Assembly: GCF_988242995.1 (NCBI RefSeq)
Contig: NZ_OZ547043.1
Strand: one strand, 5' to 3'
Length of the DNA stretch: 64,000 nucleotides
The position numbers were made by a program, and so were the translations under genes. Shown here one piece after another: positions 19,127 through 49,907 of the stretch. Positions within the stretch are counted from its first letter, which is position 1, and the number at the start of each line of letters is the position of its first letter. Under the pieces are notes generated by a model that searched no databases, had not been told where the DNA came from, and saw only the letters and a program-made list of their open reading frames with translations.

Positions 19127-19312
19127 CAGCGTCCCGCTGAAATCGTCGGCTTACCTCCTTTCGCCCTGAATGCAGTCTATCGCTAACGCGTGAACAAAAT
19201 AGTTTCCTCTGTGATTATTGCGTAACGACTCGCAAAGAATATTTGCTGGCAGGATCGCAGACTGCAAAGCCTGCGGATTGACAATCTTATCGTGAAGGCA
19301 TAATTTCAGGAG

Positions 19313-19454
19313 TGAGGGTAGAGCGGGGTTTCCCCCGCCCTGGTAGTCTTAGTAAGCGGGGAAGCTTATGACTAAGAGCACCACGATGATGAGTAGCTTC
19401 ATCATGACCCTTTCCTTATTTAAGGCCCCTTCCTCGGGAGGGGCTTTCCCGTTT
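19313..19454 (+). ncRNA. sibB: Sib antitoxin sRNA, copy 2
   Basis: Promoter TTGACA (19278-19283), 17-bp spacer, TAATTT (19301-19306); terminator hairpin GGCCCCTTCCTCGGGAGGGGC plus T-tract ending ~19454. Ends are approximate. Confidence 0.6.
19349..19405 (-). CDS. ibsB: Type I toxin Ibs, copy 2 (MMKLLIIVVLLVISFPAY)
   Basis: 18-codon minus-strand ORF; Ibs-family hydrophobic peptide within the second tandem unit. Confidence 0.75.
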   Translation of the reverse strand: MMKLLIIVVLLVISFPAY

Positions 19455-19640
19455 CAGCGTCCCGCTGAAATCGTCGACTTACCTCCTTTCGCCCTGTATG
19501 CAGTCTATCGCTGACTTGCGGATAAAATAGTTTCCAGTGTGATTATTGCGTAACGTCTCGCAAAGAATATTTGCTGGCAGGATCGCAGACTGCAAAGCCT
19601 GCAGATTGACAATCTTATCGTGAAGGCATACTTTCAGGAG

Positions 19641-19782
19641 TGAGGGTAGAGCGGGGTTTCCCCCGCCCTGGTAGTCTTAGTATGCTGGGTAGCTAATCAC
19701 TAAGAGCACCACGATGATGATCCACTTCATCATGACCCTTTCCTTATTTAAGGCCCCTTCCTCGGGAGGGGCTTTCCCGTTT
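19641..19782 (+). ncRNA. Sib antitoxin sRNA, copy 3
   Basis: Promoter TTGACA (19606-19611), 17-bp spacer, TACTTT (19629-19634); terminator hairpin plus T-tract ending ~19782. Ends are approximate. Confidence 0.55.
19677..19733 (-). CDS. Type I toxin Ibs, copy 3 (MMKWIIIVVLLVISYPAY)
   Basis: 18-codon minus-strand ORF, paralogous to copies 1 and 2, within the third tandem unit. Confidence 0.7.
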   Translation of the reverse strand: MMKWIIIVVLLVISYPAY

Positions 19783-24200: not shown

Positions 24201-24381
24201 GCTGATGTTGAGTACCGGGGTCGGCGCGGAACTGCGTCGTCCGTTAGGTATCGGCATGGTCGGCGGTCTGATTGTCAGCCAGGTGCTGACGCTGTTCACC
24301 ACGCCGGTGATTTATCTGCTGTTCGACCGCCTGGCATTGTGGACCAAAAGTCGCTTTGCTCGCCATGAAGAGGAGGCGTAA
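21259..24381 (+). CDS. mdtB: RND multidrug efflux transporter MdtB
   Basis: 1040-aa ORF; 12-TM RND architecture; start overlaps the mdtA stop. Confidence 0.9.
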
Positions 24382-30275: not shown

Positions 30276-30994
30276 CCGAGTTACCAATCGACGAGAACAC
30301 ACCGCGTATTTTGATCGTGGAAGATGAACCAAAGCTGGGGCAGTTGCTCATTGATTATCTGCGTGCTGCGAGCTATGCGCCGACGCTTATCAGCCACGGC
30401 GATCAGGTACTGCCGTATGTGCGCCAGACACCACCGGATCTGATCCTGCTGGATCTGATGCTCCCTGGCACCGATGGCCTGACGCTGTGCCGGGAAATTC
30501 GTCGTTTTTCTGACATTCCGATCGTGATGGTGACAGCAAAAATCGAAGAGATCGACCGCCTGCTGGGGCTGGAAATTGGCGCTGATGACTACATCTGCAA
30601 ACCGTACAGCCCACGGGAAGTGGTAGCGCGCGTCAAAACCATTTTGCGCCGTTGCAAACCGCAGCGTGAGTTGCAGCAACAGGATGCTGAAAGCCCGTTG
30701 ATTATCGACGAAGGTCGTTTTCAGGCTTCCTGGCGCGGAAAAATGCTTGACCTGACGCCTGCGGAATTTCGTCTGTTGAAAACGCTCTCTCATGAACCAG
30801 GAAAAGTGTTCTCCCGCGAGCAATTGCTCAATCATCTTTATGACGACTACCGCGTAGTAACCGACCGCACCATCGACAGCCACATTAAAAACCTGCGTCG
30901 CAAGCTGGAATCTCTCGACGCCGAACAGTCCTTTATCCGTGCCGTTTACGGCGTCGGTTACCGCTGGGAAGCCGACGCCTGCCGCATCGTTTAA
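30272..30994 (+). CDS. baeR: OmpR-family response regulator BaeR
   Basis: 240-aa ORF; receiver domain (ILIVEDEP...LDLMLPG) plus winged-helix output domain. Confidence 0.9.
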
Positions 30995-31173
30995 CATTTT
31001 TACCTGCCGGAGAAGGCATTCACGCCGCATCCGGCAACATTATCCCGCGCATGGTCAGCAAACTGACATTATCTCTCCGCCCTGGCAACCGCCTGAAAAT
31101 CGCTCATACTTTAATCGGTAAACAGTTCTTTTAGATGCTGTTTTCGATACGCAATTTCAATCAAGGAGTCATT

Positions 31174-31506
31174 ATGGCTGGTTGGTTTGAACTCAGTAAG
31201 AGCAGTGATAATCAGTTCCGGTTTGTGCTAAAAGCGGGCAATGGTGAGACTATCCTCACCAGCGAGCTATATACCTCAAAAGCCTCTGCGGAAAAGGGTA
31301 TCGCGTCGGTGCGTAGCAACAGCCCGCAAGAAGAACGCTATGAGAAAAAAACGGCAAGCAACGGCAAATTCTATTTCAATCTGAAAGCCGCCAATCATCA
31401 AATTATCGGCTCCAGCCAGATGTACGCCACCGCGCAATCTCGTGAAACCGGAATTGCCTCCGTTAAAGCCAATGGCACAAGCCAGACGGTGAAAGACAAT
31501 ACGTAA
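31174..31506 (+). CDS. yegP: UPF0339-family protein YegP (tandem DUF1508 repeats)
   Basis: ORF track 31135..31506; start at ATG 31174 with AAGGAG RBS (MAGWFELSKSS...), giving 110 aa with an internal two-fold repeat. Confidence 0.85.
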   Translation: MAGWFELSKSSDNQFRFVLKAGNGETILTSELYTSKASAEKGIASVRSNSPQEERYEKKTASNGKFYFNLKAANHQIIGSSQMYATAQSRETGIASVKANGTSQTVKDNT

Positions 31507-31653
31507 TTACGATGCCGGGCGTGGGTTGTTGGCGTCCGGCGCTTTACCAGCTCCCCCCTACAGCGCTACAATGCCCGCCCTTAAAGTGGGGGCACTCCCC
31601 TGGCCGCTTCATCAGGTGAAGCGGATCTGACCTGTCATCAGAACGAGAGAATT

Positions 31654-33015
31654 ATGTTTAAACCGGAACTCCTTTCCCCGGCGGGAACGCTGAAAAATAT
31701 GCGTTACGCTTTCGCTTATGGCGCAGATGCTGTTTATGCGGGCCAGCCGCGTTACTCCCTGCGTGTGCGCAACAACGAATTTAACCACGAAAATCTTCAG
31801 CTCGGCATCAATGAAGCCCACGCGCTGGGGAAAAAGTTTTATGTCGTGGTCAACATTGCACCGCACAACGCCAAGCTGAAAACCTTTATCCGTGACCTGA
31901 AACCGGTGGTGGAAATGGGGCCGGATGCGCTGATTATGTCTGATCCAGGGCTGATTATGCTGGTGCGCGAGCACTTCCCTGAAATGCCGATCCATCTCTC
32001 AGTACAGGCTAACGCCGTGAACTGGGCGACGGTGAAATTCTGGCAGCAAATGGGTCTGACCCGCGTGATCCTCTCTCGCGAACTGTCACTGGAAGAGATT
32101 GAAGAGATCCGCAATCAGGTGCCAGATATGGAGATCGAAATCTTCGTTCACGGCGCGCTGTGCATGGCCTACTCCGGTCGCTGCCTGCTCTCTGGCTATA
32201 TCAACAAGCGCGACCCGAACCAGGGCACCTGCACCAACGCCTGCCGCTGGGAGTACAACGTCCAGGAAGGGAAAGAAGATGACGTTGGCAACATCGTGCA
32301 CAAGTACGAGCCGATTCCGGTGCAAAATGTTGAGCCGACGCTGGGTATCGGCGCACCAACTGACAAAGTGTTTATGATCGAAGAAGCCCAGCGTCCGGGC
32401 GAGTATATGACCGCGTTTGAAGATGAGCACGGCACTTACATCATGAACTCGAAAGATCTGCGCGCTATCGCCCACGTTGAACGCCTGACCAAAATGGGCG
32501 TGCATTCGCTGAAAATCGAAGGCCGTACTAAATCTTTCTACTATTGCGCACGCACCGCACAGGTTTACCGTAAAGCTATCGATGACGCCGCTGCGGGCAA
32601 ACCGTTCGATACCAGCCTGCTGGAAACTCTGGAAGGTCTGGCGCATCGTGGCTATACCGAAGGTTTCCTGCGTCGTCATACTCACGACGATTATCAGAAC
32701 TACGAATACGGTTATTCAGTTTCTGACCGCCAGCAGTTTGTTGGTGAGTTTACCGGTGAGCGCAAGGGCGACCTCGCGGCGGTAGCGGTGAAAAATAAAT
32801 TCTCCGTTGGCGACAGCCTTGAGCTGATGACGCCGCAAGGCAACATTAATTTTACCCTTGAGCACATGGAAAACGCCAAAGGTGAAGCTATGCCGGTCGC
32901 ACCAGGCGATGGTTATACTGTGTGGATCCCGGTGCCGCAGGATCTTGAGCTAAATTACGCGCTGCTGATGCGTAATTTCTCCGGGGAAACCACGCGTAAC
33001 CCCCACGGTAAGTGA
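31654..33015 (+). CDS. yegQ: Peptidase U32-family protein YegQ (TrhP-type)
   Basis: 453-aa ORF beginning MFKPELLSPAGTLKNMRYAFAYGADAVYAG; Cys-rich U32 motif region. Confidence 0.9.
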   Translation: MFKPELLSPAGTLKNMRYAFAYGADAVYAGQPRYSLRVRNNEFNHENLQLGINEAHALGKKFYVVVNIAPHNAKLKTFIRDLKPVVEMGPDALIMSDPGLIMLVREHFPEMPIHLSVQANAVNWATVKFWQQMGLTRVILSRELSLEEIEEIRNQVPDMEIEIFVHGALCMAYSGRCLLSGYINKRDPNQGTCTNACRWEYNVQEGKEDDVGNIVHKYEPIPVQNVEPTLGIGAPTDKVFMIEEAQRPGEYMTAFEDEHGTYIMNSKDLRAIAHVERLTKMGVHSLKIEGRTKSFYYCARTAQVYRKAIDDAAAGKPFDTSLLETLEGLAHRGYTEGFLRRHTHDDYQNYEYGYSVSDRQQFVGEFTGERKGDLAAVAVKNKFSVGDSLELMTPQGNINFTLEHMENAKGEAMPVAPGDGYTVWIPVPQDLELNYALLMRNFSGETTRNPHGK

Positions 33016-33047
33016 TTAATTTCGATTATTTTTCCCGGATGGAAAAT

Positions 33048-33069
33048 TCTTAGAAACCGATCACATACA
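33048..33069 (+). promoter_or_regulatory. Putative CRP site of the cyaR promoter
   Basis: TTCTTAGAAACCGATCACATAC has a good TCACA right half-site and a weaker left half, centred about 41 bp upstream of the inferred cyaR 5' end; cyaR is known to be CRP-activated. Confidence 0.35.
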
Positions 33070-33099
33070 GCTGCATTTATTAAGGTTATCATCTGTTTC

Positions 33100-33186
33100 G
33101 CTGAAAAACATAACCCATAAAATGCTAGCTGTACCAGGAACCACCTCCTTAGCCTGTGTAATCTCCCTTACACGGGCTTATTTTTT
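33100..33186 (+). ncRNA. cyaR: CyaR (RyeE) Hfq-dependent sRNA
   Basis: 87 nt recognised from memory as CyaR: GCTGAAAAACATAACCCATAAAATGCTAGCTGTACCAGGAACCACCTCCTTAGCCTGTGTAATCTCCCTTACACGGGCTTATTTTTT, ending in an intrinsic terminator. Confidence 0.85.
33160..33186. other. P2-type attachment-site core (27 bp) overlapping the cyaR 3' terminator
   Basis: AATCTCCCTTACACGGGCTTATTTTTT is the reverse complement of the P2 att core AAAAAATAAGCCCGTGTAAGGGAGATT as recalled; it abuts the ogr end of the prophage. Confidence 0.7.
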
Positions 33187-33250
33187 ACGCGTAACACAAT
33201 GAAATAAAAGGATTTATTTCTGGTCACGTCCACACATTGACCACATCGAC

Positions 33251-33278
33251 AAAAAAGCCCCTCGACTGAGGGGCTTCC
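33251..33278 (-). terminator. Intrinsic terminator downstream of ogr
   Basis: Hairpin GCCCCTC-GACT-GAGGGGC followed by TTTTTT when read on the minus strand. Confidence 0.6.
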
Positions 33279-33287
33279 TGTTTGTAA

Positions 33288-33506
33288 TTACATCCACATA
33301 ATTTGCTGCCCTGACGGCAACGGGTGCGGTCTTACGGCGTGGACTTCTCCCGGCTTCACGATGTATCGCTGTACCGACTCATAAGTGATGAATGTGGCGC
33401 TGCAATTCACGTTCTGACACTGGTGATAACGCTCTTTTGTCGTGTCAGTGATATAGCGGCTTGTACGCGCATGTGCGGCATGCTGGCATAAAGGACAATG
33501 AAACAT
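33288..33506 (-). CDS. ogr: Late-gene transcription activator Ogr (Cys4 zinc finger)
   Basis: ORF track 33288..33569; start at ATG 33506 (MFHCPLCQHAAHARTSRYITDTTKERYHQCQNVNCSATF...), giving 72 aa. Confidence 0.9.
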   Translation of the reverse strand: MFHCPLCQHAAHARTSRYITDTTKERYHQCQNVNCSATFITYESVQRYIVKPGEVHAVRPHPLPSGQQIMWM

Positions 33507-33587
33507 CGCGAGCACCTCTTCCGGTTTTGTTGATGGTGCCATTTTAGTTAATTTATCCTTATAAAACAAACAGATAAATAAATTACA

Positions 33588-34751
33588 TCACTCATCATCT
33601 TCTGTTTCGTACTCCACATCAGAAAGCCTGACCTCAAGCTCTAAGGACGTCGTGAAGCCGCTATTATTCAGAAAATGTGTCACCTTAGTGATTGTCCAGT
33701 CCTGCTCGTCTATGACGCGCTTAAAGCCTGATACTTTAACCGGTGTTTCCGTGTAAATATCAGCACGACCGGTAGCCAGGCTGATGGAGAACTCCGCAAC
33801 GCCCCGTTGCAGTTTATCCCACTTCGCCTGAGCGGCACGCATGGCCTGTGCTTTCGTGGCATATACCGTGGTCAGGGCAAAAACGTTGTCAGCCTCACCG
33901 GCCATGTATTCACCTTCGCGCGCTTCCGGTACTTTTGGCGCTTTCTTCTGCCTGACCGGTTTTGCTTTCGGGTGCTCCAGTGCGCGCAGGTGTTTTTCTT
34001 TCTTTTTGCGTTTCAGTTTTACCTTCTGCTTTTGCGGCTTCGGGTCTTTGGTGTGTAACCACTTTGCCGTTACGCCGGTATAGGCTCCACGGTCAGCAAT
34101 CGCAAAATGATGGCGGTCGCCGTCGCTGCGGGTGATGGTGACCTGCGGGATTTTTTTACCGCTGGCCGTCACCCCCTGCCCCGCTTTGAGAAACAGCAGT
34201 TTTCCCATTTTTACCGACACCTCACCGCCGTTGCGTTCTGCAAGACGGGTCAGGAATTTCGCATCAGACTCCTGCGACTGGTCGATGTGCGGGATTTTAA
34301 TTCCGGCCAGTGACGGCGCGACACTGGCTTCCAGCTTGTTACGGGAGGCTATCGCCTCAACAATCGCACCGAGCGTGGTGTCATGCCATGAGCCTTCACG
34401 GCGGGAATTGAGCGTCCCGCGAAAATCTGCACTCCGGGCGCGGATGGTGACCACATCCGGTGCGCCCCGGTGTTCAACCTCATCAACGGTAAATTTCCCT
34501 TTGCATACCAGGGCAAAACCTTTCCAGCCGATATACACCGTCAGAACAGCACCACGAACCGGCAGTTCGACCTGCCCGTCGGCATCGTTCAGTTCAATAT
34601 CAAGCTGGTCAGCCTCAAAGCCCCGGTTATCCGTCAGGGTCATGCTCATCAGACGGTCGCTGATATTGCCGGTAATATCCCTGCTGTCGAGCATCAGCAT
34701 GTAATCCGGCGTCAGCGTACTGCCTGCATCAAATGTCAGCGCATCCAGCAT
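33588..34751 (-). CDS. D: P2 gpD-like tail protein
   Basis: 387-aa ORF in the conserved position after ogr; lysine-rich central segment. Confidence 0.85.
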   Translation of the reverse strand: MLDALTFDAGSTLTPDYMLMLDSRDITGNISDRLMSMTLTDNRGFEADQLDIELNDADGQVELPVRGAVLTVYIGWKGFALVCKGKFTVDEVEHRGAPDVVTIRARSADFRGTLNSRREGSWHDTTLGAIVEAIASRNKLEASVAPSLAGIKIPHIDQSQESDAKFLTRLAERNGGEVSVKMGKLLFLKAGQGVTASGKKIPQVTITRSDGDRHHFAIADRGAYTGVTAKWLHTKDPKPQKQKVKLKRKKKEKHLRALEHPKAKPVRQKKAPKVPEAREGEYMAGEADNVFALTTVYATKAQAMRAAQAKWDKLQRGVAEFSISLATGRADIYTETPVKVSGFKRVIDEQDWTITKVTHFLNNSGFTTSLELEVRLSDVEYETEDDE

Positions 34752-35230
34752 TATCCTGCCCCCGTCATACCCGTGAATCTGGTCGCCATACTGCCGGCCT
34801 TACCGATGAGCGACTCCGCCTGTTTACCAATATCGCCATAAAGCGCGGCCAGTGATTCATCAACGCGGGTGAGAGACAGCGTAAAATCAATTTTCCGGGG
34901 TGTGCCGTCTGCAAAGAAAATACTCCCTGTTTCACTCACCCTGCTGATGACATACATGCCGTAAATCATGCCGGTGCCATCCAGCAACGGCCACGCCCGG
35001 CCTTCCTCTGCCATCAGCCTGAGAGTGGTCATCGTCAGCTTGCCGCCGGTCAGTTCGGGATAAAGCACACCGGCAAGCGTGATGTTTTCCTCGCCAACGC
35101 CGAGAAACTGATAGGCATCCCGTTTACCGATACGGGAATTTGAAGGCCAGCGATAATCAGATTCACGCTGCATGGTCTGGTGTGGCAACGTCTGGCGCAT
35201 AAAAACAAACATACCTAACGCGAGCATCAT
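34751..35230 (-). CDS. U: P2 gpU-like tail protein
   Basis: 159-aa ORF between T and D, stop/start overlapping D. Confidence 0.85.
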   Translation of the reverse strand: MMLALGMFVFMRQTLPHQTMQRESDYRWPSNSRIGKRDAYQFLGVGEENITLAGVLYPELTGGKLTMTTLRLMAEEGRAWPLLDGTGMIYGMYVISRVSETGSIFFADGTPRKIDFTLSLTRVDESLAALYGDIGKQAESLIGKAGSMATRFTGMTGAG

Positions 35231-35244
35231 TTTTCGTCACCTCC

Positions 35245-37692
35245 TTAACCGTCATGCATCATGCTGGCACGGGCGCGCGCACGTTTATCCCGCTCGTATT
35301 TTTCGAGCGCATCCTGTAACTGGCGGTCAAGCTGTGTCCCCGGCGCAGTACCGCCCGTCAGGTTGATGTGATATTCGTTTTTACTCTGGTCCACATAAGA
35401 GCGGCCAGCCAGTGCCGTGACTGGCTGATAAGCCTGATAGCCTGCATAAGAGCTGGTCGCCGGAATATAACCACCGGTGCCATACGTGGCGGCATGAGTT
35501 CTGGCGGCGGTCTGGTCAAGTGTGTCTGACTCTTTGTTGATGACCCCGAGCTTTTCCAGTACCCAGTCAATACCGCTGCGCAGTTTGTTGAACGCATTAA
35601 GCGGCAGCATCAACGCGTCAGCCAGTGCCTGCCCGAACATGACGCCCGTATCACGGCAACGGTTCAGGGTGTCCCGGGTGGCTTTGACCGGGGCAATCAG
35701 GTTTTTAAACCACTGCCACGCGGCCTGTAACTTTTCGCCCAGCCAGTCAAACACCGGCTTAAGTGGCGTGAACAGTTCCCCCACCGGCGCAAATGCCGCT
35801 TTCAGCCCTTCAACCACACCGCCAAAGAATGCGCTGACAGGCTCCCAGTATTTACGGATAAGTAACGCCCCGGCGACAATGGCGGCCACCACGGCCACAA
35901 CCGGCCAGCTAATCGCCCCGATGGCCGTCATAACAGCACTGCCAACCGTCGTGAAGATTGCTCCCATTGCGCCTGCTGCCGCGATGATGGCATTGATGCC
36001 GGTGATAACCGGCCAGGCTACGAGGCCAATGGCACCGATGACACCAATCAGCGCCAGTGCACCACCGACAATGATGCCGATGGTTGACGCCAGTGATTTG
36101 TTTTTCTGTATCCAGCCGTCGAGTTTTAACACATACTTTGTGGCCGTCTGCGTGAGCTTACGCAGTGCGCCTTCCTGCTGGTCAAACAGGTCAGTCCCCA
36201 CCGCCTCATAAGCGGACTGAAACTCCTTAAAGTCACCGCCGAGGTTGTCCTGCATGATATTTACCAGCTCGGCGGTCTTCCCGTCTGAGGCTTTAAACGC
36301 AGCGGTCAGTTTGTCCAGCTTTCCAGTTGAGGCGGCAGTCATCAGCACGGCGGCGGCTGAGCTGGCCTCCTCCCCGAAAATAGTTTTCATGTATTCAGCC
36401 TGCTGGGCAGTACCGAGCCGGTTTTTCTCAAAACTGGCCTGCATTTCTTTCAGAATGGTAAATACTGGTCGAGTATTCCCTTTACTGTCTGAGGTTTTCA
36501 CGCCAAGCTCTTTCAGTGCATCCCATGCTTTTCCCGTCGGTGCCTGCAGGCGGCTTAACACGGCACGGCTTCCCGTCCCCGCCATTGAACCGGTAATTTT
36601 TGCATCATGCAGCGCCCCGACCATTGCGGCGGTTTCTTCAATGCTGACACCAGCATTTTTTGCCACAGGTGCGGCATAGGTCAGCGCATCGCTCATGCCA
36701 TCAAAATCGGCGGCGGTTTTGTTCATCGTCATGGAGAGAACATCCCCGATATGAGCGACCTTATCGTTTGAAAGCTGAAAGGCGGATTTCATCCCCATCA
36801 GCAGGGCGGCGTTTTCTTCCATCGTGCGACGGTTCGCCAACGCCATATTCAGCGTGACCGGCGTTGCCGCCTGAATGGCATCAACATCCCCACCGGCTTT
36901 CGCAATAATAATCTGCGCACCGGCTGCATCATCTGCCGAGGCTGCGGTATTGTCGCCGAGCTGGCGCGCCTGCTTGCGTAGTGCAGCCATTTCGGCGGAG
37001 TCTTTTGCCACACCGAGCACAGCCTGCAATTCTGAGTTTTTCTGCGCAAACTCATAACCGGGCATCAGCAACTTAACTCCGGCCATCGTTCCCGCAGCAG
37101 CAATCCCCACACCGGCAGCGCCCACTGAGGCCATATTTCCGGCCAGTTCCTTTCCGGCCTGATAACGCTGTTTTACTGCGTTAAGTTTTGCCTGTTGTGC
37201 ACTGACACGCGCCAGCGCGTCACGCTGACGGTTAAGCTGTGCGGTGGTTTCACTGATACGGTTTTTCAGTCCCTGCTCATCATGTGCAAGATTGCGGGTA
37301 TTAATTCCCACAGCGGCCAGTTCCCGCTGCTGGCGTTTAATGGAATCTGTCAGGCGGTTATATTTCGCCTGTAAGTCCTCCGCCGCACGCTTTGCGGATT
37401 CCAGCACTTTCGCCTGAGCACGGGTCGGACGTTCAGTGTTTTTAAGCTGTGTGGCAAGGGCTTCGGCTTCCTGCCGTGCCTTTTCAAGTGCATGACCAGT
37501 CACGGCAAGCTGTGCGCTGGTCTTGCGAAATCCCTCAATACGGGATGCGTGACCGTTCAGCTCGCGCAGTGATTTTTGTGTTTCCCGGATATCCCCCGAC
37601 AGCGACTTACTCGCTGTGCGGATGGATTTAAACGGGCGGGATGCCTGGTCAACAGCCCTGAGCAATACCTGTAATTTTACATTGTTACTCAT
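35245..37692 (-). CDS. T: Tail tape-measure protein gpT
   Basis: 815-aa ORF, coiled-coil-rich with Ala/Gly-rich TM-like stretches; follows E/E'. Confidence 0.85.
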   Translation of the reverse strand: MSNNVKLQVLLRAVDQASRPFKSIRTASKSLSGDIRETQKSLRELNGHASRIEGFRKTSAQLAVTGHALEKARQEAEALATQLKNTERPTRAQAKVLESAKRAAEDLQAKYNRLTDSIKRQQRELAAVGINTRNLAHDEQGLKNRISETTAQLNRQRDALARVSAQQAKLNAVKQRYQAGKELAGNMASVGAAGVGIAAAGTMAGVKLLMPGYEFAQKNSELQAVLGVAKDSAEMAALRKQARQLGDNTAASADDAAGAQIIIAKAGGDVDAIQAATPVTLNMALANRRTMEENAALLMGMKSAFQLSNDKVAHIGDVLSMTMNKTAADFDGMSDALTYAAPVAKNAGVSIEETAAMVGALHDAKITGSMAGTGSRAVLSRLQAPTGKAWDALKELGVKTSDSKGNTRPVFTILKEMQASFEKNRLGTAQQAEYMKTIFGEEASSAAAVLMTAASTGKLDKLTAAFKASDGKTAELVNIMQDNLGGDFKEFQSAYEAVGTDLFDQQEGALRKLTQTATKYVLKLDGWIQKNKSLASTIGIIVGGALALIGVIGAIGLVAWPVITGINAIIAAAGAMGAIFTTVGSAVMTAIGAISWPVVAVVAAIVAGALLIRKYWEPVSAFFGGVVEGLKAAFAPVGELFTPLKPVFDWLGEKLQAAWQWFKNLIAPVKATRDTLNRCRDTGVMFGQALADALMLPLNAFNKLRSGIDWVLEKLGVINKESDTLDQTAARTHAATYGTGGYIPATSSYAGYQAYQPVTALAGRSYVDQSKNEYHINLTGGTAPGTQLDRQLQDALEKYERDKRARARASMMHDG

Positions 37693-37836
37693 TCGTGTTT
37701 CCGCTTCGCCGGAGCGCCTTTTCGCGCCATGTGATGAGTTCGGTCAGGCTCATGGGATACAGTTCTGATGGCGGCCAGTGAAATATCACTGCCACATCCG
37801 CCATCAGGTCATCGACCGAGAGATTTTTCGGGAACG

Positions 37837-38112
37837 TTACTGCACCGAGTTCGGCGACAAAAAACCGACCACCTTACCGGCCAGCGCCACAAGGTCAGGC
37901 AGTTCCAGCGCGGCGACTTCCTGCTCGGTCAGCATCGGTGCCGTCATGCGCGGCAGCACCTTAATCAGTGCATCGACTTCGGAGTTCGCGACCGCAGCCA
38001 GACTGACACCGCGCAGCGTCCCGGCATTAGGTTTCATCAGCGTGACCTGTTCGATAACCTGCTCACCACGCTTGACCGGATTGTCCAGGGTAATCACATT
38101 TTCTTTGTTCAT
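37837..38112 (-). CDS. E: Tail assembly chaperone gpE (E+E' made by -1 frameshift)
   Basis: 91-aa ORF MNKENVITLDNPVKRGEQVIEQVTLMKPNAGTLRGV...; C-terminal G-F-L codons form the slippery heptamer. Confidence 0.85.
   Translation of the reverse strand: MNKENVITLDNPVKRGEQVIEQVTLMKPNAGTLRGVSLAAVANSEVDALIKVLPRMTAPMLTEQEVAALELPDLVALAGKVVGFLSPNSVQ
37858..37864 (-). other. Programmed -1 ribosomal frameshift slippery site T_TTT_TTG for gpE+E'
   Basis: Minus-strand codons GGT-TTT-TTG near the 3' end of E give the canonical X_XXY_YYZ heptamer; conserved chaperone frameshift of long-tailed phages. Confidence 0.65.
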
Positions 38113-38168
38113 GGTTTTCTCACTTCTGAATCGGGGTTAACCGGTCAGCCAGGCTGACCGGATGAAAA

Positions 38169-38687
38169 TCACAGGCCGATATTGCGGCGGTGTTGCTCCA
38201 GCCGGTCGACGCCGTTCACCTTCTCAATCATGTTGATGGTGTCGATTTCGACCAGCTCCTTACCGTCCATCGTCAGCCGGAAATAGGTGCAGACCACGGA
38301 GATTTTCGACTCGGTGTCTTCTCCCTGTTTGCCCTCGCCGGTGTCGATTTCTTTCTGACGTCCACGCATGACCACCTCGACGGCCACCGTTTCGCCGGTA
38401 TCGTCGCGCTGGTAAGAGCCTGCAAAACGAATCGGTACGGAATCCACACCGGTTGCGGCGTAAAGCTCCCAGATAACCGAATCCGGGAAGCCACCGAGCG
38501 ACCACTCCATTGACAGCGCATCGTCATCAAGGCCGAGGTCTACCGGTGCGCTGCCGTTCATCCCCGCACCGCGATAGTTTTCGAGCTTACGGGTCAGTTT
38601 TGGTAGCGTGACGGACTTCGCGACGCCCTGATAGCTGTAGCCGTTCAGAAAGACGTTCATTAACTTGAGTTTGCGCGGCATTGCCAT
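38169..38687 (-). CDS. FII: Tail tube protein gpFII
   Basis: 172-aa ORF immediately downstream of FI. Confidence 0.85.
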   Translation of the reverse strand: MAMPRKLKLMNVFLNGYSYQGVAKSVTLPKLTRKLENYRGAGMNGSAPVDLGLDDDALSMEWSLGGFPDSVIWELYAATGVDSVPIRFAGSYQRDDTGETVAVEVVMRGRQKEIDTGEGKQGEDTESKISVVCTYFRLTMDGKELVEIDTINMIEKVNGVDRLEQHRRNIGL

Positions 38688-38699
38688 CGGTCAGGCTCC

Positions 38700-39890
38700 T
38701 TAATTGCTGTTAACCGAGGTGACCAGATTTGCCAGGTATTTATCGGTAATACGCTGGCGCAGGGTCAGGTTTTCAAGAGGAGGCACCGGTGTATAGTCGT
38801 AGTCGATATACAGTTTTCCGGCCTTGAGGGTTTCCGCATCGTTGGATTCTTCGCTGAACCAGCAGGTCGCATCCACGATATAGCCGTTTGTTTTCAGCTC
38901 ACGGAATTTGGCATTGATGCCGTCAACGATGTCGCGAATCAGCGTTGCGGTGATGGGCTTGTCCACCGCCCACATGTGCGCCTCAGCCATCGTGTCGGCC
39001 ATCACCTGCGCGGTGCGGGTGTAGTTTTCAAAGAGGAACAGCGGGTCATCAGAGCAGGTACGGTTACCCCAGAATCGGAAACCGTCGCGGCGAATCAGCG
39101 TAGTGACGCCTGACTCGTTAAGCAGGTCAGCATCGGTGCCGGACTCCTGCAAATCCCAGAATACAGATGCGCTGATGCCGGTAACACCGTTTACCCCGAC
39201 GTTGGACAGCGTTTTATGCCAGCCCTGCTCCTGGTCGATTTTAGCGCGCAGACCCAGCGCACGGGCGGTGGCATACGCGGTGGCGGTGGTACTGGTGACC
39301 GTATCCCATGCGAGGAAATCCGGCCAGATGACCATCAGCTCACGCTGGCTGAAATTCTGGCGGTAGGCTTTCACCTCGGAAATGGTCTTACAGCCCCATG
39401 CGCTGATATATCCGAAAGCGCGCAGCTTCTGACAGACGGATGCCAGTGCAACAGCCACCTCTTTGGTATCCAGTCCCGGCACGCCGAGAATACGCGGTTT
39501 AACACCGGTTACCGACTCCGCCGCCAGCAGGGCTTTCAGTCCGGTGTACTGACCGTTTTCGTCGGTGGTGCCGATGATATTGGAAACGGTCTGCGCAAGT
39601 TTCGTTTCCTCGTCATCACCGGTGCCGTCTTCCACGCGCACGACAACGGTGACCGGTTTTGACTGGTCAGCGATGGCCTGCAACGATGCCGCCAGCGTGC
39701 CTTTTTTACCGGCCTTTGCAATTGCGCTCTGCACATTGGTAATCAGCACCGGTTTATTGAGGGGGAAGGTTTCCGCATCCGCATCGCTGGCCGTGCAGAC
39801 CATGCCGACAATGGCAGTGGATACGGTGGAAATGACGCGGGTGCCGTCGTTAATCTCCAGCACCTGCACGCCGTGATGATAGTCACTCAT
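38700..39890 (-). CDS. FI: Contractile tail sheath protein gpFI
   Basis: 396-aa ORF beginning MSDYHHGVQVLEINDGTRVISTVSTAIVG. Confidence 0.9.
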   Translation of the reverse strand: MSDYHHGVQVLEINDGTRVISTVSTAIVGMVCTASDADAETFPLNKPVLITNVQSAIAKAGKKGTLAASLQAIADQSKPVTVVVRVEDGTGDDEETKLAQTVSNIIGTTDENGQYTGLKALLAAESVTGVKPRILGVPGLDTKEVAVALASVCQKLRAFGYISAWGCKTISEVKAYRQNFSQRELMVIWPDFLAWDTVTSTTATAYATARALGLRAKIDQEQGWHKTLSNVGVNGVTGISASVFWDLQESGTDADLLNESGVTTLIRRDGFRFWGNRTCSDDPLFLFENYTRTAQVMADTMAEAHMWAVDKPITATLIRDIVDGINAKFRELKTNGYIVDATCWFSEESNDAETLKAGKLYIDYDYTPVPPLENLTLRQRITDKYLANLVTSVNSN

Positions 39891-40257
39891 CCGTTTAACT
39901 CCGTGGTTAATGGGTGCAACTATTTTCTGTTGTGCAGAGCATGAGACGCTATTTGCCCTGGATGGTCAGTGGATGAAACAACAGATACAGAAAAGGCGGG
40001 CAATTCGCCCGCATTTCCTAATTTGTACTAACCCAGCTTCCAACTGACAATTTACGTAGCCAAAAAGCTATCAAGTCTGGCAGACTGATTTGTACGAGGT
40101 GTGGATAACCATAATTATGTGCATGCTAACATCACGGTGCATGAGTCAATCGGGTCTATGCCAAAGAATTACGCCTTGATTGACCATAGATTGCTTGCCC
40201 TTGAATTTGACCATTCCAATAAAATGAATTATGATAATCGTCAAATGGAGGTGCACA

Positions 40258-40902
40258 ATGATCAAACACACCGCAGCAGAAAGGGAAACCAACACTTCAG
40301 CTAAGCTGAATGAATACCAGTTGAACCTTCTGAAAAGAATTAACAACCTCGCTATTTCCCTGATGCCTGAATTTGAAGACAAAAACCAGGCAATTAATGC
40401 TATCACGCTGGATGATAGTTCACTGATGCAATTGCTCTACACCGTTCAACTCGAACAGAAGACTCGTGTCAATGACTACGAACTACGTAAAGTGCGCCGT
40501 CGTCGCGAAAATCTGGAACGATTTTATCGTGGGCTTCAGGAGTTAGGCGGTACGCTAAAGGTAAATGACGTGGTCGATATTCTTGGAATCACCCGCCAGG
40601 CGATCAACATTCGCGTTAAGAAGAACAAGCTTTTAGCATTCAAGCAGAACGGTGATTTTATTTTCCCGAAATTTCAGTTCACAGATAACGGGCTGATTCC
40701 CGGCTTTGAAGACGTAATGGCGGCATTTGACGAGAATACCCATCCAATGCTGAGGTTGGGTGTGCTGAAATCACCAATAGAGGTTAATAGCGAAGGCCTG
40801 AAAAAGACGCCGATTCAAATCATGCAGGACGGCGCTAAAAATAGTGAACTTAGTCTGGCTATCCGTGCCGCTAAACAGTTCGGAAATCATGTATCCAGTT
40901 AA
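40258..40902 (+). CDS. Hotspot cargo: HTH protein with C-terminal MbcA/ParS (DUF2384)-like toxin-binding region; putative antitoxin or regulator
   Basis: ORF track 40231..40902; ATG 40258 has a GGAGG RBS, giving 214 aa. Central HTH-like segment (VVDILGITRQAINIRVKKN); C-terminal SPIEVNSEGLKKTPIQIMQDG...LSLAIRAAKQFG resembles the MbcA/ParS toxin-binding domain as recalled; not in the P2 core. Confidence 0.45.
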   Translation: MIKHTAAERETNTSAKLNEYQLNLLKRINNLAISLMPEFEDKNQAINAITLDDSSLMQLLYTVQLEQKTRVNDYELRKVRRRRENLERFYRGLQELGGTLKVNDVVDILGITRQAINIRVKKNKLLAFKQNGDFIFPKFQFTDNGLIPGFEDVMAAFDENTHPMLRLGVLKSPIEVNSEGLKKTPIQIMQDGAKNSELSLAIRAAKQFGNHVSS

Positions 40903-40908
40903 TTGTTT

Positions 40909-40940
40909 TAAAAAGAGGGGCTAGCCAGCCCCTCTTTGGT
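40909..40940. terminator. Bidirectional intrinsic terminator between the convergent cargo genes
   Basis: Hairpin AGAGGGGCT-AGCC-AGCCCCTCT flanked by T-rich runs on both strands, lying in the 38-bp gap between the two stop codons. Confidence 0.6.
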
Positions 40941-41651
40941 TTACATTGGTTCTGGCGTAATTTCGAATCCAAGCAGTTCTTCGAACATCTCTTCACCTGA
41001 CATCGTTCCTTTGTGCCACCCTTTAGGGAAGATACCTTCGTCATTTTCGATGTAACTGGCATAAGGCACCATCCCCTGAGGGGTATCGGTAAAGGCTGGT
41101 GTACTATCCGGTCGTTCCCAAAAGGCATAACAGCGTTTATAGCGTTTATGCCTTGAGGTATAGGCTATCCCGTCATAGTCACGCCCGAAATGTGTATAAA
41201 GATGTTCCATTAGCCATTGAGTAAAAGTGTAATCCTCGTTCTCTAAGCTATCCAAAGGAATATGTAACAACTCACAGAGCGCTACAACATCGATCACTTT
41301 CACTGGCCTCATGACATCCACAGAGCACATATAGTGTTGTGAAAGTACCGATTCAGGATAAGAAATCGTCCCTTCGAGATGGAGCAAACGCCCATAAGCT
41401 TCTGCCGCCGCCGTTAACGCAGAGTCAGAGGCATACCATACCGCCACACATCCCCCTGGGGGGTTGTATCGCCCACATTCATTTTCCTCAATTGGCGCTC
41501 TGAAGTTGATTGCGCTTTCATACAACGCCCTTTGATGACGCTTCAAAAGACCAGAGCCTGGTTGAATGTCAATCGCCGGAATACGTCCAGATTTATTTTT
41601 TGCAGCAATTCCTTGTGCAACAATATTTTTTTCAAATGTCCATTTGGTCAT
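40941..41651 (-). CDS. Hotspot cargo: RES-domain protein (putative NAD+-consuming toxin)
   Basis: ORF track 40941..41699; ATG 41651 has an AAGGAG RBS, giving 236 aa. N-terminal CGRYNPPGGCVAVWYASDSALTAAAE matches the RES signature GGRWNPP...Y.A.S...A..E (Arg, Glu); later DGIAYTSRH supplies the conserved Ser. Confidence 0.55.
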   Translation of the reverse strand: MTKWTFEKNIVAQGIAAKNKSGRIPAIDIQPGSGLLKRHQRALYESAINFRAPIEENECGRYNPPGGCVAVWYASDSALTAAAEAYGRLLHLEGTISYPESVLSQHYMCSVDVMRPVKVIDVVALCELLHIPLDSLENEDYTFTQWLMEHLYTHFGRDYDGIAYTSRHKRYKRCYAFWERPDSTPAFTDTPQGMVPYASYIENDEGIFPKGWHKGTMSGEEMFEELLGFEITPEPM

Positions 41652-42066
41652 TTTTACTACTCCTTCTATAAACAGATTAAGCCATAGGCTCCTCTCCATA
41701 TTGATTGAAAATAATCCCTACCGTGCTTGCCCGGCAGGGGGTATGAGAACATGTGTATCTCAATCTCGATTATACCAAGCAAATTTTCTATTTTTCGGAA
41801 ATTTAGAGAGTTTTTTTAATGCTTCGCATGCCTTCTCGATGTATTGATGGGGCTGAAAAGAAGAAATAACGCAGGAAGTTTTACGGAAAGGAGAACTATA
41901 AAGATTTTTTTCAAGTGAATTAGAAATAAGAACTTCGCAGGATACTGCATTTTTAGTGAAGATGGGTTGAGTTTCTCAGCAAGAGTCCCGCGAGAGCCGT
42001 ATTGACAGCATGCATGACTCGGAGATTATTCCCCATGCAGGATGGTACACCAATGCAAGAGTTGGT

Positions 42067-42345: not shown

Positions 42346-42924
42346 TTATTGTGGCATTTCAGGCCATTCTATATCCGGAGCATCTTCCGGCTGAACGCGA
42401 TTCAGTAGCACACGGTATTTTTTCCAGTGTGTCAGGCTTAACTTTTCTTCCTCGGTAGCCATATCTAAATCGACAGCATCCTGCAGCGTGGCAATAATTT
42501 CACCTGCATATGCAATCAGCTCTTTCTTCTGAGAGTCAGCCGCTCTGACAAGCGCATCACGCTCTGCATTCTCATCATTCACCCACGCATTTCCGTTCCA
42601 TTTCTGATAATCCCCATCCGGGGAAATGGCTGTCACGTCTGGAGGTAATGCGCCAAGTTCAGAAATATAAATGGCTGCTCCCGTTTTCGTTTCGTAGACA
42701 GTCTTTCCGCGATGATCTTCCATCAACTCCCATTTTATTTCATCTGCATTGAAAACGGCTGCATAACCAGCCGGTATATCAGGCGGCGCAATATCTGTAC
42801 TGTTTGCAGGCAGACCTGTATACGGTGGAATATACGCGTCACTTTCCCCAATAAATTCATTGGTTCCATCAAGTAAATTAAATACGCGGATAGTTTGTGC
42901 TTCTGCACTCATTCTGAAAGCCAT
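42346..42924 (-). CDS. G: Tail fiber assembly chaperone (gpG/Tfa-like)
   Basis: 192-aa ORF immediately downstream of and overlapping the tail fiber gene stop; conserved position. Confidence 0.7.
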
Positions 42925-45542
42925 TATGCAAGCCTCACAATATAGTTAAATGCGATGTTTTTTACGGTATTTTCTGTATTACCTGTAGCATTAACGGTAA
43001 TAGAGTGCCCGTGTGAGCCAATAGCAACCGTGTGTGAATGTGCACCAATACCAACAGTATGGTTATGTGCTCCAATGTCGACTGTATGTGCATGATTGCC
43101 TGATGAACTTGTAGTCGTAGCACCTTTATCACTTCGCGGAACACCATAATCTGCACCGCCTGATTGCACGCTCACAGCAAAACCGACGGTATGTGTATGA
43201 TTGCCAGAAGTATTGGTTGATTTTGTGCCGTGGTTAAACGTACTGACTGTTTTTGTCCCGTAATCAAATGAACTGGTTGTTTTCGTTCCCAAATCCGTAT
43301 TTGACGCACTGGCGCTGTGAGTATGCGATTTAATCCCGTCCTGTTCCTGTGACAATACGGCACGCCCACTGGCAGGTTTGCCCTTGATTGTCCAGCCGCG
43401 CATATCAGGAATAACACCTGAAGGATAGGCAACAGCCAGTTTCGGATATGCAGCCTTATCAAACGTCTGCCCCTGCATAATTGCATAGCCCGCAGGTGGT
43501 GTATCTGATGGCCACGGCAACGGAACACCTGGCGGAAACGCTTCAATATCTTTCGTCCCGTCAAACGTTACGCCATTAATCGCCCTTGCCGTTTTCAGCT
43601 TTGTAGCTGTAGCCGCATTGCCGGACAGTTCGCCTGAAAGACCGGCGCTGAAGGTTTGTTTCGCCGCCCATGTCTGAGCTTCGTCGATAATTGGCACACG
43701 TCTTGTCGTGATCGTGCGGCTTCCCGGATTTCCTGAAATACGCACCATAAAAAAGCGGTAGTTCGCTTTACTTACAGTGCTGCGCCATACATGCATTGAG
43801 CGCCCAGTACCGGAATCATCACTCGGACCAACTGCGATGTTTATCAGGTTGCCATCAATGACGCCCCAGTCCATACCGTCGGGAATATTGGTCATGTTAT
43901 CAAGCCGAACGGTTATCAGACTGCCCGGCACAAAGTCGTGGGTCTGCCAGTCCAGGCTGGTGAGTTTTGCCACTGCACCGCCGATACCCAGATTCAGGGG
44001 AAGTGAATACGAGGTGTAGACTTCCCGCCATTCGCTCCACGAGCTGCCGGTATAGACGCGCTCAAACGTGCGACCTTTAAGGGTTGCACCTGTTCCGGCA
44101 GTTGTATAACGCTGCCATACGTTAACACCATCAAAGCGCCTCAACACTTCCAGAATACCGAGGACTGTCACGCCGTTTCCGTCCAGTATTGGACCGTTGG
44201 TCGCTTTACCTGTAACGCTGTAAATACCTGGTGAAGTCACATCATTCAAATCCCCGTCGTAATAACGACTCTCTGACTGATGACCGACTCTTAACCACGG
44301 TTCCCACTGCGGATTTGATGCATCCCAGCTTGCCGCAAGGCAGCGGACATACATATTTCCACGGCGAGTGGTATAACGTTGCGTTCTTCCATAATTCCCG
44401 CCTTCGAGGATCTCAAGCGTCCCCTGAGCAAAGCCGCCTTCCTCTGGATAATTGCGTTCATATGAAGCTATAGCCGAGCTACTGTTACGCCATAAACCAA
44501 GATGTTCGGCGGCTCCAAGCGTATTCAGGTCTATAGTCGTACTCAAAGGGCGGGTAGCTGATTGAGTGTGACGCCATACGCCCCATGGACCATCAGTACC
44601 ATTCCACTGATTGGCGAGTTTACGCATGTATACATTGCCGTCTCTCGTGATAAAGCGTTGCGTGCCTGCAAAATTGCCGGCAGCAAAAACCTCAAGCACA
44701 CCGACAGCATTATCTTCCGGGAAATTTTTCTCCAGTGTTGCGTTAGTTGAGGTAGCTTTAGACCAGATCCCCAGATAAGCCTTAACGGGACCAAATGTAT
44801 TCAGATCAGCATCAACCGGCATTTCGCCGTTGTTTTTCATAAACGTCAGGCTGGTAACGCCAACATTGTCCAGAAAAGCGTCCTTATCTGGAATATCGCC
44901 ACCGTTCTGGTCTTTCTGCAGACGTTTCTCAGCATTGTCATAGGCTGCTTTTACTGCCTTTGGCGTTGCCGCCAGCTTTTCACTGGTGCTGTTTGTTGCA
45001 CTGCTTAACTGAGTAAAACCTTTTTCTGTCAGCGTGGCGTCAGGATGGCGGCGGGACTGCTCATGCTCTGCGATTTTGTCATCGACGTAATCCTGCGTCG
45101 CCATCACCGTGCTGGCATCAATACTCAGCTCAACGGACGCCACGTTGCTGAGAATAATAACCATGCGGCAGGTCTGCGCACGTCCGGAGCCTTCAGCCAG
45201 TTCTGGCTTATAGCTTTCTGCCATGTTGGATACCGCAATCAGTGTTCCGGCATCGTCATACAGACCAAGCTCACGCATCCAGAAGCCGCCCACTTCGGGC
45301 GGTACAACCAGTTCAGCCACGATATAGTTTTTATTCTTGTTATCCACGCTGACTTTATTCAGAGCGTGACGCCAGACCTCATGCACCAGTTTCGTCTGAC
45401 CGGCATCCGGCACCGGCAATTTGCCATTACCGTCACCCACGGCCATTGCAGACAGGTTTACTTTTTTCCCGCCGGGGACAGTGGCGGCTGCCAGCTTTGC
45501 GGCTCCGGCAGTAGTGATAACGGTTTTAAATTTCGTGCTCAT
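42924..45542 (-). CDS. H: Tail fiber protein gpH, mosaic, with His-box-rich C-terminal receptor-binding region
   Basis: 872-aa ORF; P2 H-like N-terminus ([40 protein letters not shown]...); C-terminal repeated GNHxHTV/GxHxH motifs. Confidence 0.85.
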
Positions 45543-45552
45543 TGTTTCTCAC

Positions 45553-46083
45553 TTATCCGGGATAAACAGTAATAACATCACCATCACAGACCACACCGCC
45601 TGTATACAGATAGCCGGGAATGTCCTGGATAATGTTCAGGCCGATAAGGTGGCGACTTGCGGGTTTGGCATCGGCAATCAGCCGTTCCATTTCCAGATAC
45701 ATCTCCTCCGTGATACCGCTTTCCAGCACACCGATATCAAGGCGAAAGGTTCCGGGCGGGTCGTTTGTCTCCCACCATTCCTTTACGTTAATGAGATAGC
45801 CGAGCGGCTCCACCACACGCCGGATTGCGCCGACAGTGCCTTTATGACAATGAATGAAATACGCATCGCGGATAACGGCGCGTTTTGTCGCTTCCGGCCA
45901 CTTTTCATCCCACCTGTCGACCGAAAACGCCCACGCCAGCCACGGCAGCAGATTTGCCGGACAGGTATCCGGGTTCCACAGCTCACGAATACTGACCGGC
46001 GTTTTTTCAATTTCCGCACAGGCTTTTGCGGCAGCAACTTCAAGCGGTGATGAGCCGGTCGGCAGCAGTCGCGAATCACTCAT
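45553..46083 (-). CDS. I: Baseplate protein gpI
   Basis: 176-aa ORF between J and H. Confidence 0.85.
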   Translation of the reverse strand: MSDSRLLPTGSSPLEVAAAKACAEIEKTPVSIRELWNPDTCPANLLPWLAWAFSVDRWDEKWPEATKRAVIRDAYFIHCHKGTVGAIRRVVEPLGYLINVKEWWETNDPPGTFRLDIGVLESGITEEMYLEMERLIADAKPASRHLIGLNIIQDIPGYLYTGGVVCDGDVITVYPG

Positions 46084-46984
46084 CCGAGCCTCCGGTCACG
46101 ACGCGGTATTCGGTACAGAAAGACGCCTGCGTACTGTTGAGCACGATGTCAGCCAGTGGTGCAGTCAGTTCGACACGCTGCACGCCTTCCACATGCAAAG
46201 CGGCATAAATGGCAGACAGACGGATGTCGCGCCCCAGCCGGTGCTGTGCCGTGATATACGCTTCCAGTTTTTTTACTGCGGCCGCGCGGATGGGTTCGCT
46301 TTCGGGACCAGGGTAAAGGTAAAGCGTGGCGTTTATCTGGTATTCAACGATGGCGGCAGACTGCACGGTCACGCGGTCGGCCACCGGCCTGACATCCTCG
46401 CCATTAAGGGCGTTACGTACCACAGCCAGCAGGTCTTCGGATGCCACACCGTTATTCTCACGTGACAGCACAGAGATGGTGACGCAGGCCGGAGACGGAC
46501 TGGTGACAGAGATATCCGCGACACGCCCGTCGGCACTGCGGCCATGATACTGATAGGCACCCACCGACCCGGCGACGCTTAAACCTTCAAACGCCTGCTG
46601 AATACGCAGACGATAATCGGTGTCAGATTCCATCACTGCCGGTGTCGGCGGGAGGGTCGAATCATCTGCCGGGGTGATAATCAGGCGCGTGGTGTTGTAA
46701 TTGGCACCAATCACATCAAGGTCATTACCGGCTGCACAGGCCAGCATCACCGCCCGTGCAGCCTCATTCACACGCTGACGCCAGATAAGCTCACGATAAG
46801 CATTTTCCTCCAGCAGTTTGACGAGAGGCTCAGATTCCAGCGTCAGGGTACGGGCGACCGCCTCCTGCTGGTCTTCCGGGTAAAGGGAAATCAGTGTCGC
46901 CTTGCGTTCGGCGAGAATGGTTTCAAAGTCCAGCTCCTCGACCACATCCGGTGCGGGTAGCTGGTTCAGGTCGATAATCGGCAT
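46076..46984 (-). CDS. J: Baseplate wedge protein gpJ
   Basis: 302-aa ORF overlapping the W and I boundaries. Confidence 0.85.
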   Translation of the reverse strand: MPIIDLNQLPAPDVVEELDFETILAERKATLISLYPEDQQEAVARTLTLESEPLVKLLEENAYRELIWRQRVNEAARAVMLACAAGNDLDVIGANYNTTRLIITPADDSTLPPTPAVMESDTDYRLRIQQAFEGLSVAGSVGAYQYHGRSADGRVADISVTSPSPACVTISVLSRENNGVASEDLLAVVRNALNGEDVRPVADRVTVQSAAIVEYQINATLYLYPGPESEPIRAAAVKKLEAYITAQHRLGRDIRLSAIYAALHVEGVQRVELTAPLADIVLNSTQASFCTEYRVVTGGSDE

Positions 46985-46988
46985 GGTT

Positions 46989-47336
46989 TCAACTCACAGG
47001 GATGGTTAACGAAAGTGGCTGGCCGGTGTCGTTGTGCTGGCCGGTTAACGTGACCGTCATTCGCCCGTCAAAACTGCGCGCCGTGGTGACAGATGACAGC
47101 GTGACGCGGGGTTCCCATTTCAGCACCGCCATGTAACAGGCGACCTTAATCTGCAACTCAAGCGCCGGGGTCTGCGGCTGGTCAATCATTGACGCCAGCA
47201 ACGAGCCGTAATCACGACGCATCACCCGTGAGCCGACCGGTGTGCGCAGGATATCGCCGATACTCTGGCTGATATGCTCAAGGTCAGTGACAGTCAGGCC
47301 ATCACTGCGATTCATTCCGAGATAACGCGCTGTCAT
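46989..47336 (-). CDS. W: Baseplate protein gpW (gp25-like)
   Basis: 115-aa ORF, conserved position. Confidence 0.85.
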   Translation of the reverse strand: MTARYLGMNRSDGLTVTDLEHISQSIGDILRTPVGSRVMRRDYGSLLASMIDQPQTPALELQIKVACYMAVLKWEPRVTLSSVTTARSFDGRMTVTLTGQHNDTGQPLSLTIPVS

Positions 47337-47968: not shown

Positions 47969-48034
47969 AACGGGAAGGATGCCGCCGGGTCATACCGGCG
48001 GCAATGTGACGATGAGGTGTCGGGAATGGCACAA

Positions 48035-49893: not shown

Positions 49894-49907
49894 GGTGTTT
49901 ACTCCGT

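Follow-up and report, generated by a model that had tools for sequence, protein, structure and literature searches.

Where a temperate phage is inserted at the very end of a small RNA gene, the question arises how the gene keeps its terminator and which of the terminator's bases are of phage origin. In the window, i.e. the whole 64,000-nt stretch of DNA analysed here, the host gene cyaR runs directly into the ogr end of a P2-like element. We interpret this element, with a probability of about 0.9, as a P2-type (Peduovirus) prophage at the classical P2 site, the 3' end of cyaR, and the boundary described here as its ogr-proximal attR junction. The features on both sides of this boundary are the following:

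31654-33015 (+): yegQ/trhP, the host gene 5' of cyaR; 453-aa open reading frame, so annotated in matching E. coli genomes and in K-12
33100-33186 (+): cyaR (ryeE), sRNA gene of 87 nt; Rfam RF00112, 87/87 identical to K-12 cyaR (b4438)
33151-33178 (+): intrinsic terminator hairpin of CyaR with an 11 bp stem and a 6-nt loop, followed by the U-tail at 33179-33186
33160-33186 (unstranded): P2 att core, ogr-proximal copy, corresponding to P-O-B' (called attR for P2); agrees with the annotated attP of P2 at 27/27 positions
33185-33218 (unstranded): counterpart of the IHF-binding site of P2 in the P arm; aligns to P2 24324-24357 with 6 mismatches
33222-33249 (unstranded): counterpart of the arm-type sites of P2 Int in the P arm (GTCCACA / GACCACA repeats); 28/28 identical to P2 24293-24320
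33254-33277 (-): Rho-independent terminator of ogr and the F operon; found in the terminator scan and matching the P2 terminator at 24265-24288 with 1 mismatch
33288-33506 (-): ogr, activator of the late genes; 72/72 in tblastn with P2 Ogr

The assignment of cyaR is based on a covariance match of the Rfam family CyaR_RyeE (RF00112) at 33098-33183, which covers the full model (1-85) and scores 100.7 bits against a gathering score of 47. The 87 nt of the RNA body are likewise identical (87/87) in the non-lysogen YDC107, and in the 84 nt upstream of the gene a single base (33094) differs from K-12. For control of the cyaR promoter by cAMP-CRP, earlier literature is cited in PMC3333887. The terminator folds with -19.8 kcal/mol (z = -3.0), was returned as the same hairpin by the terminator scan and agrees with the paired columns of the Rfam consensus. 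Within the window letters at 33151-33192, GCCTGTGTAATCTCCCTTACACGGGCTTATTTTTTACGCGT, the loop corresponds to UCUCCC and UAUUUUUU follows directly 3' of the hairpin, with the tail counted as 6 U. Hairpin and U-tail together would constitute the module bound by Hfq.

The 27-mer AATCTCCCTTACACGGGCTTATTTTTT occurs a single time in the window, at 33160-33186 (+), and allowing up to 3 mismatches it was recovered in 0 of 100 shuffles. It is the reverse complement of the annotated attP core of the P2 reference genome (NC_001895, 24356-24382) at all 27 positions, and because the 87-nt K-12 cyaR maps to 33100-33186, the core coincides exactly with the final 27 nt of cyaR. The first-pass annotation, in which these last 27 nt had been equated with the reverse complement of the P2 core, was thus correct to the base. 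When the whole P2 genome was compared to the window by blastn, nucleotide homology stopped at P2 position 24382, equivalent to window position 33160. A chance overlap of core and terminator is ruled out by the outcome of the shuffles together with this exact limit of the phage homology. The statement that the att core doubles as the sRNA terminator has to be narrowed: within the CyaR terminator, the core comprises the loop, the complete 3' arm, the U-tract and, on the 5' arm, just its final 2 nt, so that most of the 5' arm is host-only sequence.

A four-way alignment was used to compare the window junction with P2 attP, the K-12 junction and one int-side junction. To the left of the core, the window and K-12 carry host sequence, whereas attP and the int-side junction carry phage P' sequence; to the right, the window, K-12 and attP all continue into phage P-arm sequence. 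That the ogr end of the prophage begins right after the core, as had been proposed, is borne out by the alignment of the P arm, the ogr terminator and ogr to P2. The 6 mismatches in the IHF-site region are all clustered within the first 15 nt past the core, and the same variant of this region is also found in K-12 and in many lysogens. For the arm-type repeats of Int, a consensus of tgTGGaCa has been given (PMC3448106).

From ogr to the end of the window, the prophage was compared to all 42 annotated P2 proteins by tblastn, which matched 36 of the 42. The segments beyond ogr are the following:

33588-39890 (-): F operon with the tail genes D, U, T, E/E', FII and FI; full-length tblastn matches, 98-99%
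40231-41699 (both strands): cargo at the Z/fun position, a 223-aa open reading frame (+) and a 252-aa RES-domain open reading frame (-), without P2 homology
42346-47968 (-): V operon with V, W, J, I, the tail fibre gene H and a tail-fibre assembly protein; tblastn and the Pfam domains Phage_tail_fib, Collar and Caudo_TAP
48038-54235 (-): O operon with O, N, M, L, X, Y, K, lysA, lysB, lysC, R and S (head, lysis, tail completion); full-length tblastn matches, 93-100%
54409-57215 (+): P (large terminase) and Q (portal); full-length tblastn matches, 99.7% and 99.4%
57385-57403 (-): cos, the 19-nt cohesive end; exact, 19/19 identical to P2 cos GGCGAGGCGGGGAAAGCAC
57555-59492 (-): cargo at the old/tin position, a DUF7380 protein of the candidate defence family PDC-S39; Pfam E = 3.8e-38, PADLOC E = 2.9e-84
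59507-63818 (-): early operon with cox, orf78, B, orf80-83 and A (replication); full-length tblastn matches, 89-100%
63933-64000 (+): 5' part of C, which encodes the immunity repressor and is cut at the window end; its first 22 aa are those of P2 C

Full-length matches were obtained for Q, P, O, N, M, L, X, Y, K, lysA, lysB, lysC, R and S as well as for V, W, J, I, FI, FII, E, T, U, D, ogr, cox, orf78, B and orf80-83, and A was matched over 759 of 761 residues, with identities of 89-100% throughout. The essential P2 genes present in the window are all full-length, uninterrupted and in P2 order. The P2 proteins for which tblastn found no match in the window are int, which is located past the end of the window, together with five non-essential ones, orf30, fun(Z), orf91, tin and old; in the blastn comparison of the P2 genome with the window, the absence of orf30 was located to about 47968-48033. 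Genes that are swapped in comparison to P2 are restricted to non-essential cargo. The product of E and E' spans two frames, and its -1 frameshift architecture with a T-rich slippery site is conserved. The prophage had been described as looking complete, and the tblastn comparison agrees with this: the essential genes show neither frameshifts nor stops, and both the E/E' frameshift and cos are intact.

In the tail-fibre region (42346-45542, -), H (872 aa) resembles P2 only in its N-terminal 207 aa and differs in its distal part, and it is followed by an assembly protein of the Caudo_TAP, lambda-gpK type, which suggests a swapped host-range module. At the old/tin position, the DUF7380 protein is called with 610 aa in related genomes. 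At the Z/fun hotspot, the 252-aa protein (-) contains a RES domain (Pfam E = 1.5e-12) and is convergent with the 223-aa open reading frame (+), for which no Pfam match was found; a PADLOC scan of the two open reading frames gave no match for either. The RES-domain gene and its convergent neighbour may form a toxin-type module.

The window ends 22 codons into C, so that int and the other junction are not visible in it. An exact look-up of the gpA protein led to contigs that all have the order yegS-yegR-int-C-cox-...-A. One of them, DBIHTX010000001.1 of assembly GCA_050090315.1, is 100.000% identical to window positions 49507-64000 (14,494 nt). A second piece of the same contig, retrieved by a look-up of gpD, is 100.000% identical to positions 30588-37751 (7,164 nt) and includes the host sequence on the yegQ side. 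The identity was thereby compared over two segments with a total of 21.7 kb, and since both share the same offset (contig position = window position + 54,983), the window and this contig are collinear. In GCA_050090315.1, C is identical to P2 C in 99 of 99 aa and int encodes a P2-type tyrosine integrase of 337 aa that matches P2 Int in 334 of 337 residues. The assembly also contains a perfect second core as a direct repeat (L006 6323-6349, window-equivalent 65441-65467), which is located 32,281 bp from the first and about 1.4 kb past the window end, is preceded by P2-like P'-arm sequence and is followed by yegR-yegS. A sequence search within the 64-kb window found no second copy of the core. 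The second core copy and the int gene that the first-pass annotation had sought beyond the window are thus both present in the collinear assembly, from which we infer int, most of C and the second core of the window's own prophage. An artificial 200-nt excision product, in which cyaR is joined to the host flank past the second core, is identical in 200 of 200 positions to YDC107, where the site reads yegQ-cyaR-yegR-yegS without a prophage.

P2-type integrases bind a core that is common to attP and attB in addition to arm sites in attP (PMC3448106). We propose that the prophage was integrated by its own tyrosine integrase into the 3' end of cyaR. The phage attP would carry a 27-bp copy of the cyaR end that comprises the terminator loop, the 3' arm of the stem and the U-tract, and recombination inside the shared core would insert about 32.3 kb with one copy of the core at each end. 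Since cyaR ends with the core, a crossover at any point of the core would recreate an intact cyaR on the ogr side. The junction would then read as an uninterrupted cyaR, with promoter, seed, hairpin and U-tail kept, and the displaced host copy of the core would end up at the int side.

By analogy with tyrosine integrases that target tRNA genes, strand exchange probably takes place in the section of the core that forms the terminator loop, or close to it. If the exchange falls in the loop, phage DNA would provide the 3' arm and the U-tract with which cyaR is now terminated. It had been claimed that integration regenerates the 3' stem and T-tract from phage DNA; the core does supply this 3' half and CyaR is unchanged (87/87), but the phage origin of the bases is deduced and depends on the crossover point because attP and attB are identical over the core. 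A usable statement on the cleavage positions of P2 Int was not found in the literature searched. The one informative core polymorphism, ACACAGGC, was found in the int-side core (attL) of locus L007; in an ST131 genome, both copies have the A allele.

Intact open reading frames do not reveal whether a prophage is viable, and the element could be cryptic, i.e. complete-looking but incapable of excision or plaque formation because of missense defects or a defective Int, Cox or att arm. The same locus often harbours decayed P2 elements, as the K-12 remnant and the yegR relic described below illustrate, and the IHF-site region is unlike that of P2 at 6 of the first 15 nt past the core. However, this variant is shared with K-12 and many lysogens, the essential genes are all full length with 93-100% amino acid identity to P2, cos is exact, Int (334/337) and C (99/99) are almost or fully those of P2, and both cores are perfect. 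In addition, another host background (L007) harbours a phage with 1 mismatch in 14.5 kb, suggesting that the phage has moved recently. We consider a cryptic state unlikely and infer from the preserved gene set that the prophage could still make virions. The earlier description as a complete and potentially inducible prophage holds as far as the essential genes are concerned, but inducibility is doubtful: the repressor is 100% P2 C, with which an SOS response probably does not induce the prophage. Classically, neither UV nor the SOS response induces P2, and its release is spontaneous or follows derepression by P4. In the literature searched, we found no usable explicit statement of the non-inducibility of P2; the anti-repression of C by P4 has been described (PMC2995052). 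For this prophage, we expect spontaneous release or release through P4 or Cox, not SOS induction.

An integrase-mediated event in this very chromosome is not the only route by which the locus could have become occupied. A yegQ-cyaR-prophage segment could have been acquired by homologous recombination after transduction or conjugation, or a phage could have recombined with a resident ogrK-D' remnant. The flank on the yegQ side (30587-33186) is only 97.6% identical to YDC107, whereas the flank on the yegR side is 100% identical, a contrast that suggests a recombination breakpoint at or near the prophage; the yegQ-side flank also reaches at most 98.4% identity to any of 5,426 complete E. coli genomes, and the locus lies near a polymorphic region adjoining polysaccharide gene clusters, to which the JUMPstart element at 4094-4132 belongs. 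A search of these 5,426 genomes for an identical one gave best matches of 98.4% and 98.1%. Yet an unrelated recombination tract could explain the divergence of the flank equally well, and the junctions are exactly those that recombination by Int predicts, which points to a site-specific event somewhere in the ancestry. Acquisition by homologous recombination thus appears rather improbable to us, although less so than a cryptic prophage. A very different proposal is that lysogeny alters the function of CyaR through changed termination, read-through or antisense transcription from ogr and the F operon, and thereby leads to a lysogenic conversion of the CRP-CyaR regulon. The sequence past the U-tract does change from the host's GTGCAT... 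or ATGCAT... to ACGCGT... of the phage, and late phage transcription converges on cyaR with only the hairpin at 33254-33277 to stop it. But the promoter (1 difference in 84 nt from K-12), the RNA body, the hairpin and the tail of 6 U are unchanged and the late operons are silent in a lysogen, so that we regard such an effect as highly improbable. We retain integration by the phage's own integrase, with CyaR left intact, as the preferred reading.

The arrangement is known and frequent. Among 5,426 complete E. coli genomes, yegQ-cyaR-ogr-D-U is contiguous in 724 and the int-side junction is present in 816, whereas in 4,573 the site is empty or holds a short remnant; a prophage of this kind occupies cyaR in about 13-15% of complete E. 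coli genomes. Table 2 of Archer et al. 2011 (PMC3032704) lists Wphi2 (P2) in E. coli W, ogr-D' in K-12 and P2*B in E. coli B at the site 'cyaR RNA', and Bobay et al. 2013 (PMC3603311) name E. coli ryeE (= cyaR) as a previously known phage target, citing Wassarman et al. 2001. As these two papers and the annotation of K-12 list the site, cyaR was already known as an insertion site of P2.

Compared to P2 at its preferred site in E. coli, the prophage has the same 27-bp core, P arm, Int (99%) and C repressor (100%). It also shares its orientation both with P2 at this site and with the P2 remnant PR-X of K-12, with ogr beside cyaR and int beside yegR. Differences from the P2 reference are the replacement of old/tin by the DUF7380/PDC-S39 gene and of fun(Z) by the RES-domain gene and the 223-aa open reading frame, the absence of orf30 and orf91, and a new tip of the tail fibre. 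Wphi2 of E. coli W and P2*B of E. coli B represent the same phage type at the same insertion site; they occur in other strains and have another set of cargo genes, which is no difference in kind. In K-12, PR-X (ogrK-yegZ) is reduced to ogrK plus 219 nt of D and 18 nt from the second core. The remnant ends in this partial second core, TACACGGGCTTATTTTTT, fused to gene D, and yegZ is a fragment of D. In the RefSeq record of K-12, PR-X starts inside cyaR and overlaps its last 18 nt. The cryptic remnant had been given as ogrK-yegZ-yegR, of which ogrK and the D fragment can be retained, but yegR lies outside PR-X. Its assignment to the remnant is ruled out, since yegR follows the second core in lysogens and is also found where the site is empty.

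Other phages also have an attP that duplicates the 3' part of an RNA gene, among them phage 186 (tRNA-Ile), Fels-2/SopE-phi (ssrA) and Salmonella phages at ryeB/sdsR. Integrases that target tRNA, tmRNA or sRNA genes leave the gene intact after insertion, and the hairpin of the gene supplies the inverted repeat, as it does here. The present case differs from tRNA-targeting integrases in that the target is the terminator of an Hfq-type sRNA instead of a tRNA arm and that the core is short (27 bp) and restricted to loop, 3' arm and U-tract. The locus is a clean textbook case of a phage that carries a spare end of a regulatory RNA gene, by which its insertion is rendered harmless. The prophage marks the strain as a P2 lysogen with P2 immunity and as a possible helper for P4-type satellites, it carries a candidate defence gene and a RES-domain gene in two cargo hotspots of P2, and its exact junctions could be used for PCR typing.

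A gpD identical to that of the window is also found in P2-like prophages at other sites, beside genes with cation-efflux and phosphofructokinase Pfam domains (L135, L140) and, in L139, beside genes with pyruvate formate-lyase-like and formate/nitrite-transporter domains. The occurrence of an identical gpD at different sites indicates that the same late-gene module travels with different integration modules.

How often the site has been used before was addressed with a pattern scan for the CyaR seed and the terminator loop in species-representative genomes, which returned at least 120 Enterobacteriaceae loci. The terminator stem varies between species, and the variants include ACACGGGC, ACGCAGGC, ACGCGGGC and GCGCAGGC. 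Among the 120 matches listed, 18 have P2-type P-arm motifs about 15 and about 49 nt past the local core; they include loci of Citrobacter, Buttiauxella, Enterobacter, Trabulsiella, Huaxiibacter, E. albertii and Salmonella diarizonae. An ogr homologue is also present in six of the 18 listed loci, and among the matches listed the core beside the P arms carries the terminator-stem variant of the respective host species. Likewise among the matches listed, yegS starts 74-117 nt past the core in at least 60 loci, including three divergent Escherichia lineages, and none of them has yegR. In typical E. coli, even when free of a prophage, about 815 nt that contain yegR are interposed between the cyaR core and a degenerate core (2601-3415 in YDC107 (L010), window-equivalent 65468-66282 in the collinear assembly). 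This segment begins with a fossil P2 P arm, CCATTGACCACATCGATAGAAT, and ends in the degenerate core AATCCTCCATACTTGAACTGATTTTTT, which matches 19 of 27 positions and is separated by 7 nt from the point at which the ancestral flank, CGACTTTCATCCTGTTCTGAC, begins again. In shuffles, at least 19/27 was reached anywhere in the 902 nt between core and yegS in only 0.3% of cases.

Given that other Enterobacteriaceae and three Escherichia lineages are without yegR, this gene looks like cargo of an ancient element that had integrated at the same att site. A broader and tentative interpretation, to which we assign somewhat less than an even chance, is that the cyaR terminator is an old P2-type landing pad that has been repeatedly rewritten across the Enterobacteriaceae, with at least three generations of integration and yegR as fossil cargo. 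If true, the three generations would be represented by the yegR relic, the ogrK-D' remnant of K-12 and the intact prophage, and the 'empty' site of E. coli would itself be a fossil integration with yegR, which is a small evolutionary point. Successive integrations at the att site of cyaR were not found stated in the literature searched. A contig from a metagenome-assembled genome labelled Collinsella sp. (L082) has a cyaR of the E. coli type ahead of a P2 ogr-D-U junction with a 100% identical Ogr and is almost certainly a mis-binned Escherichia contig.

Two further features of the window lie away from the prophage. A JUMPstart element, of the type found upstream of polysaccharide gene clusters, is located at 4094-4132 (-) with 57.3 bits in Rfam. 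Three tandem Sib antitoxin RNAs are encoded at 18943-19748 (+) with Rfam scores of 139-150 bits, and three Ibs toxins are annotated opposite to them in a related genome; K-12 has two Sib copies (sibA/sibB) at the corresponding locus.
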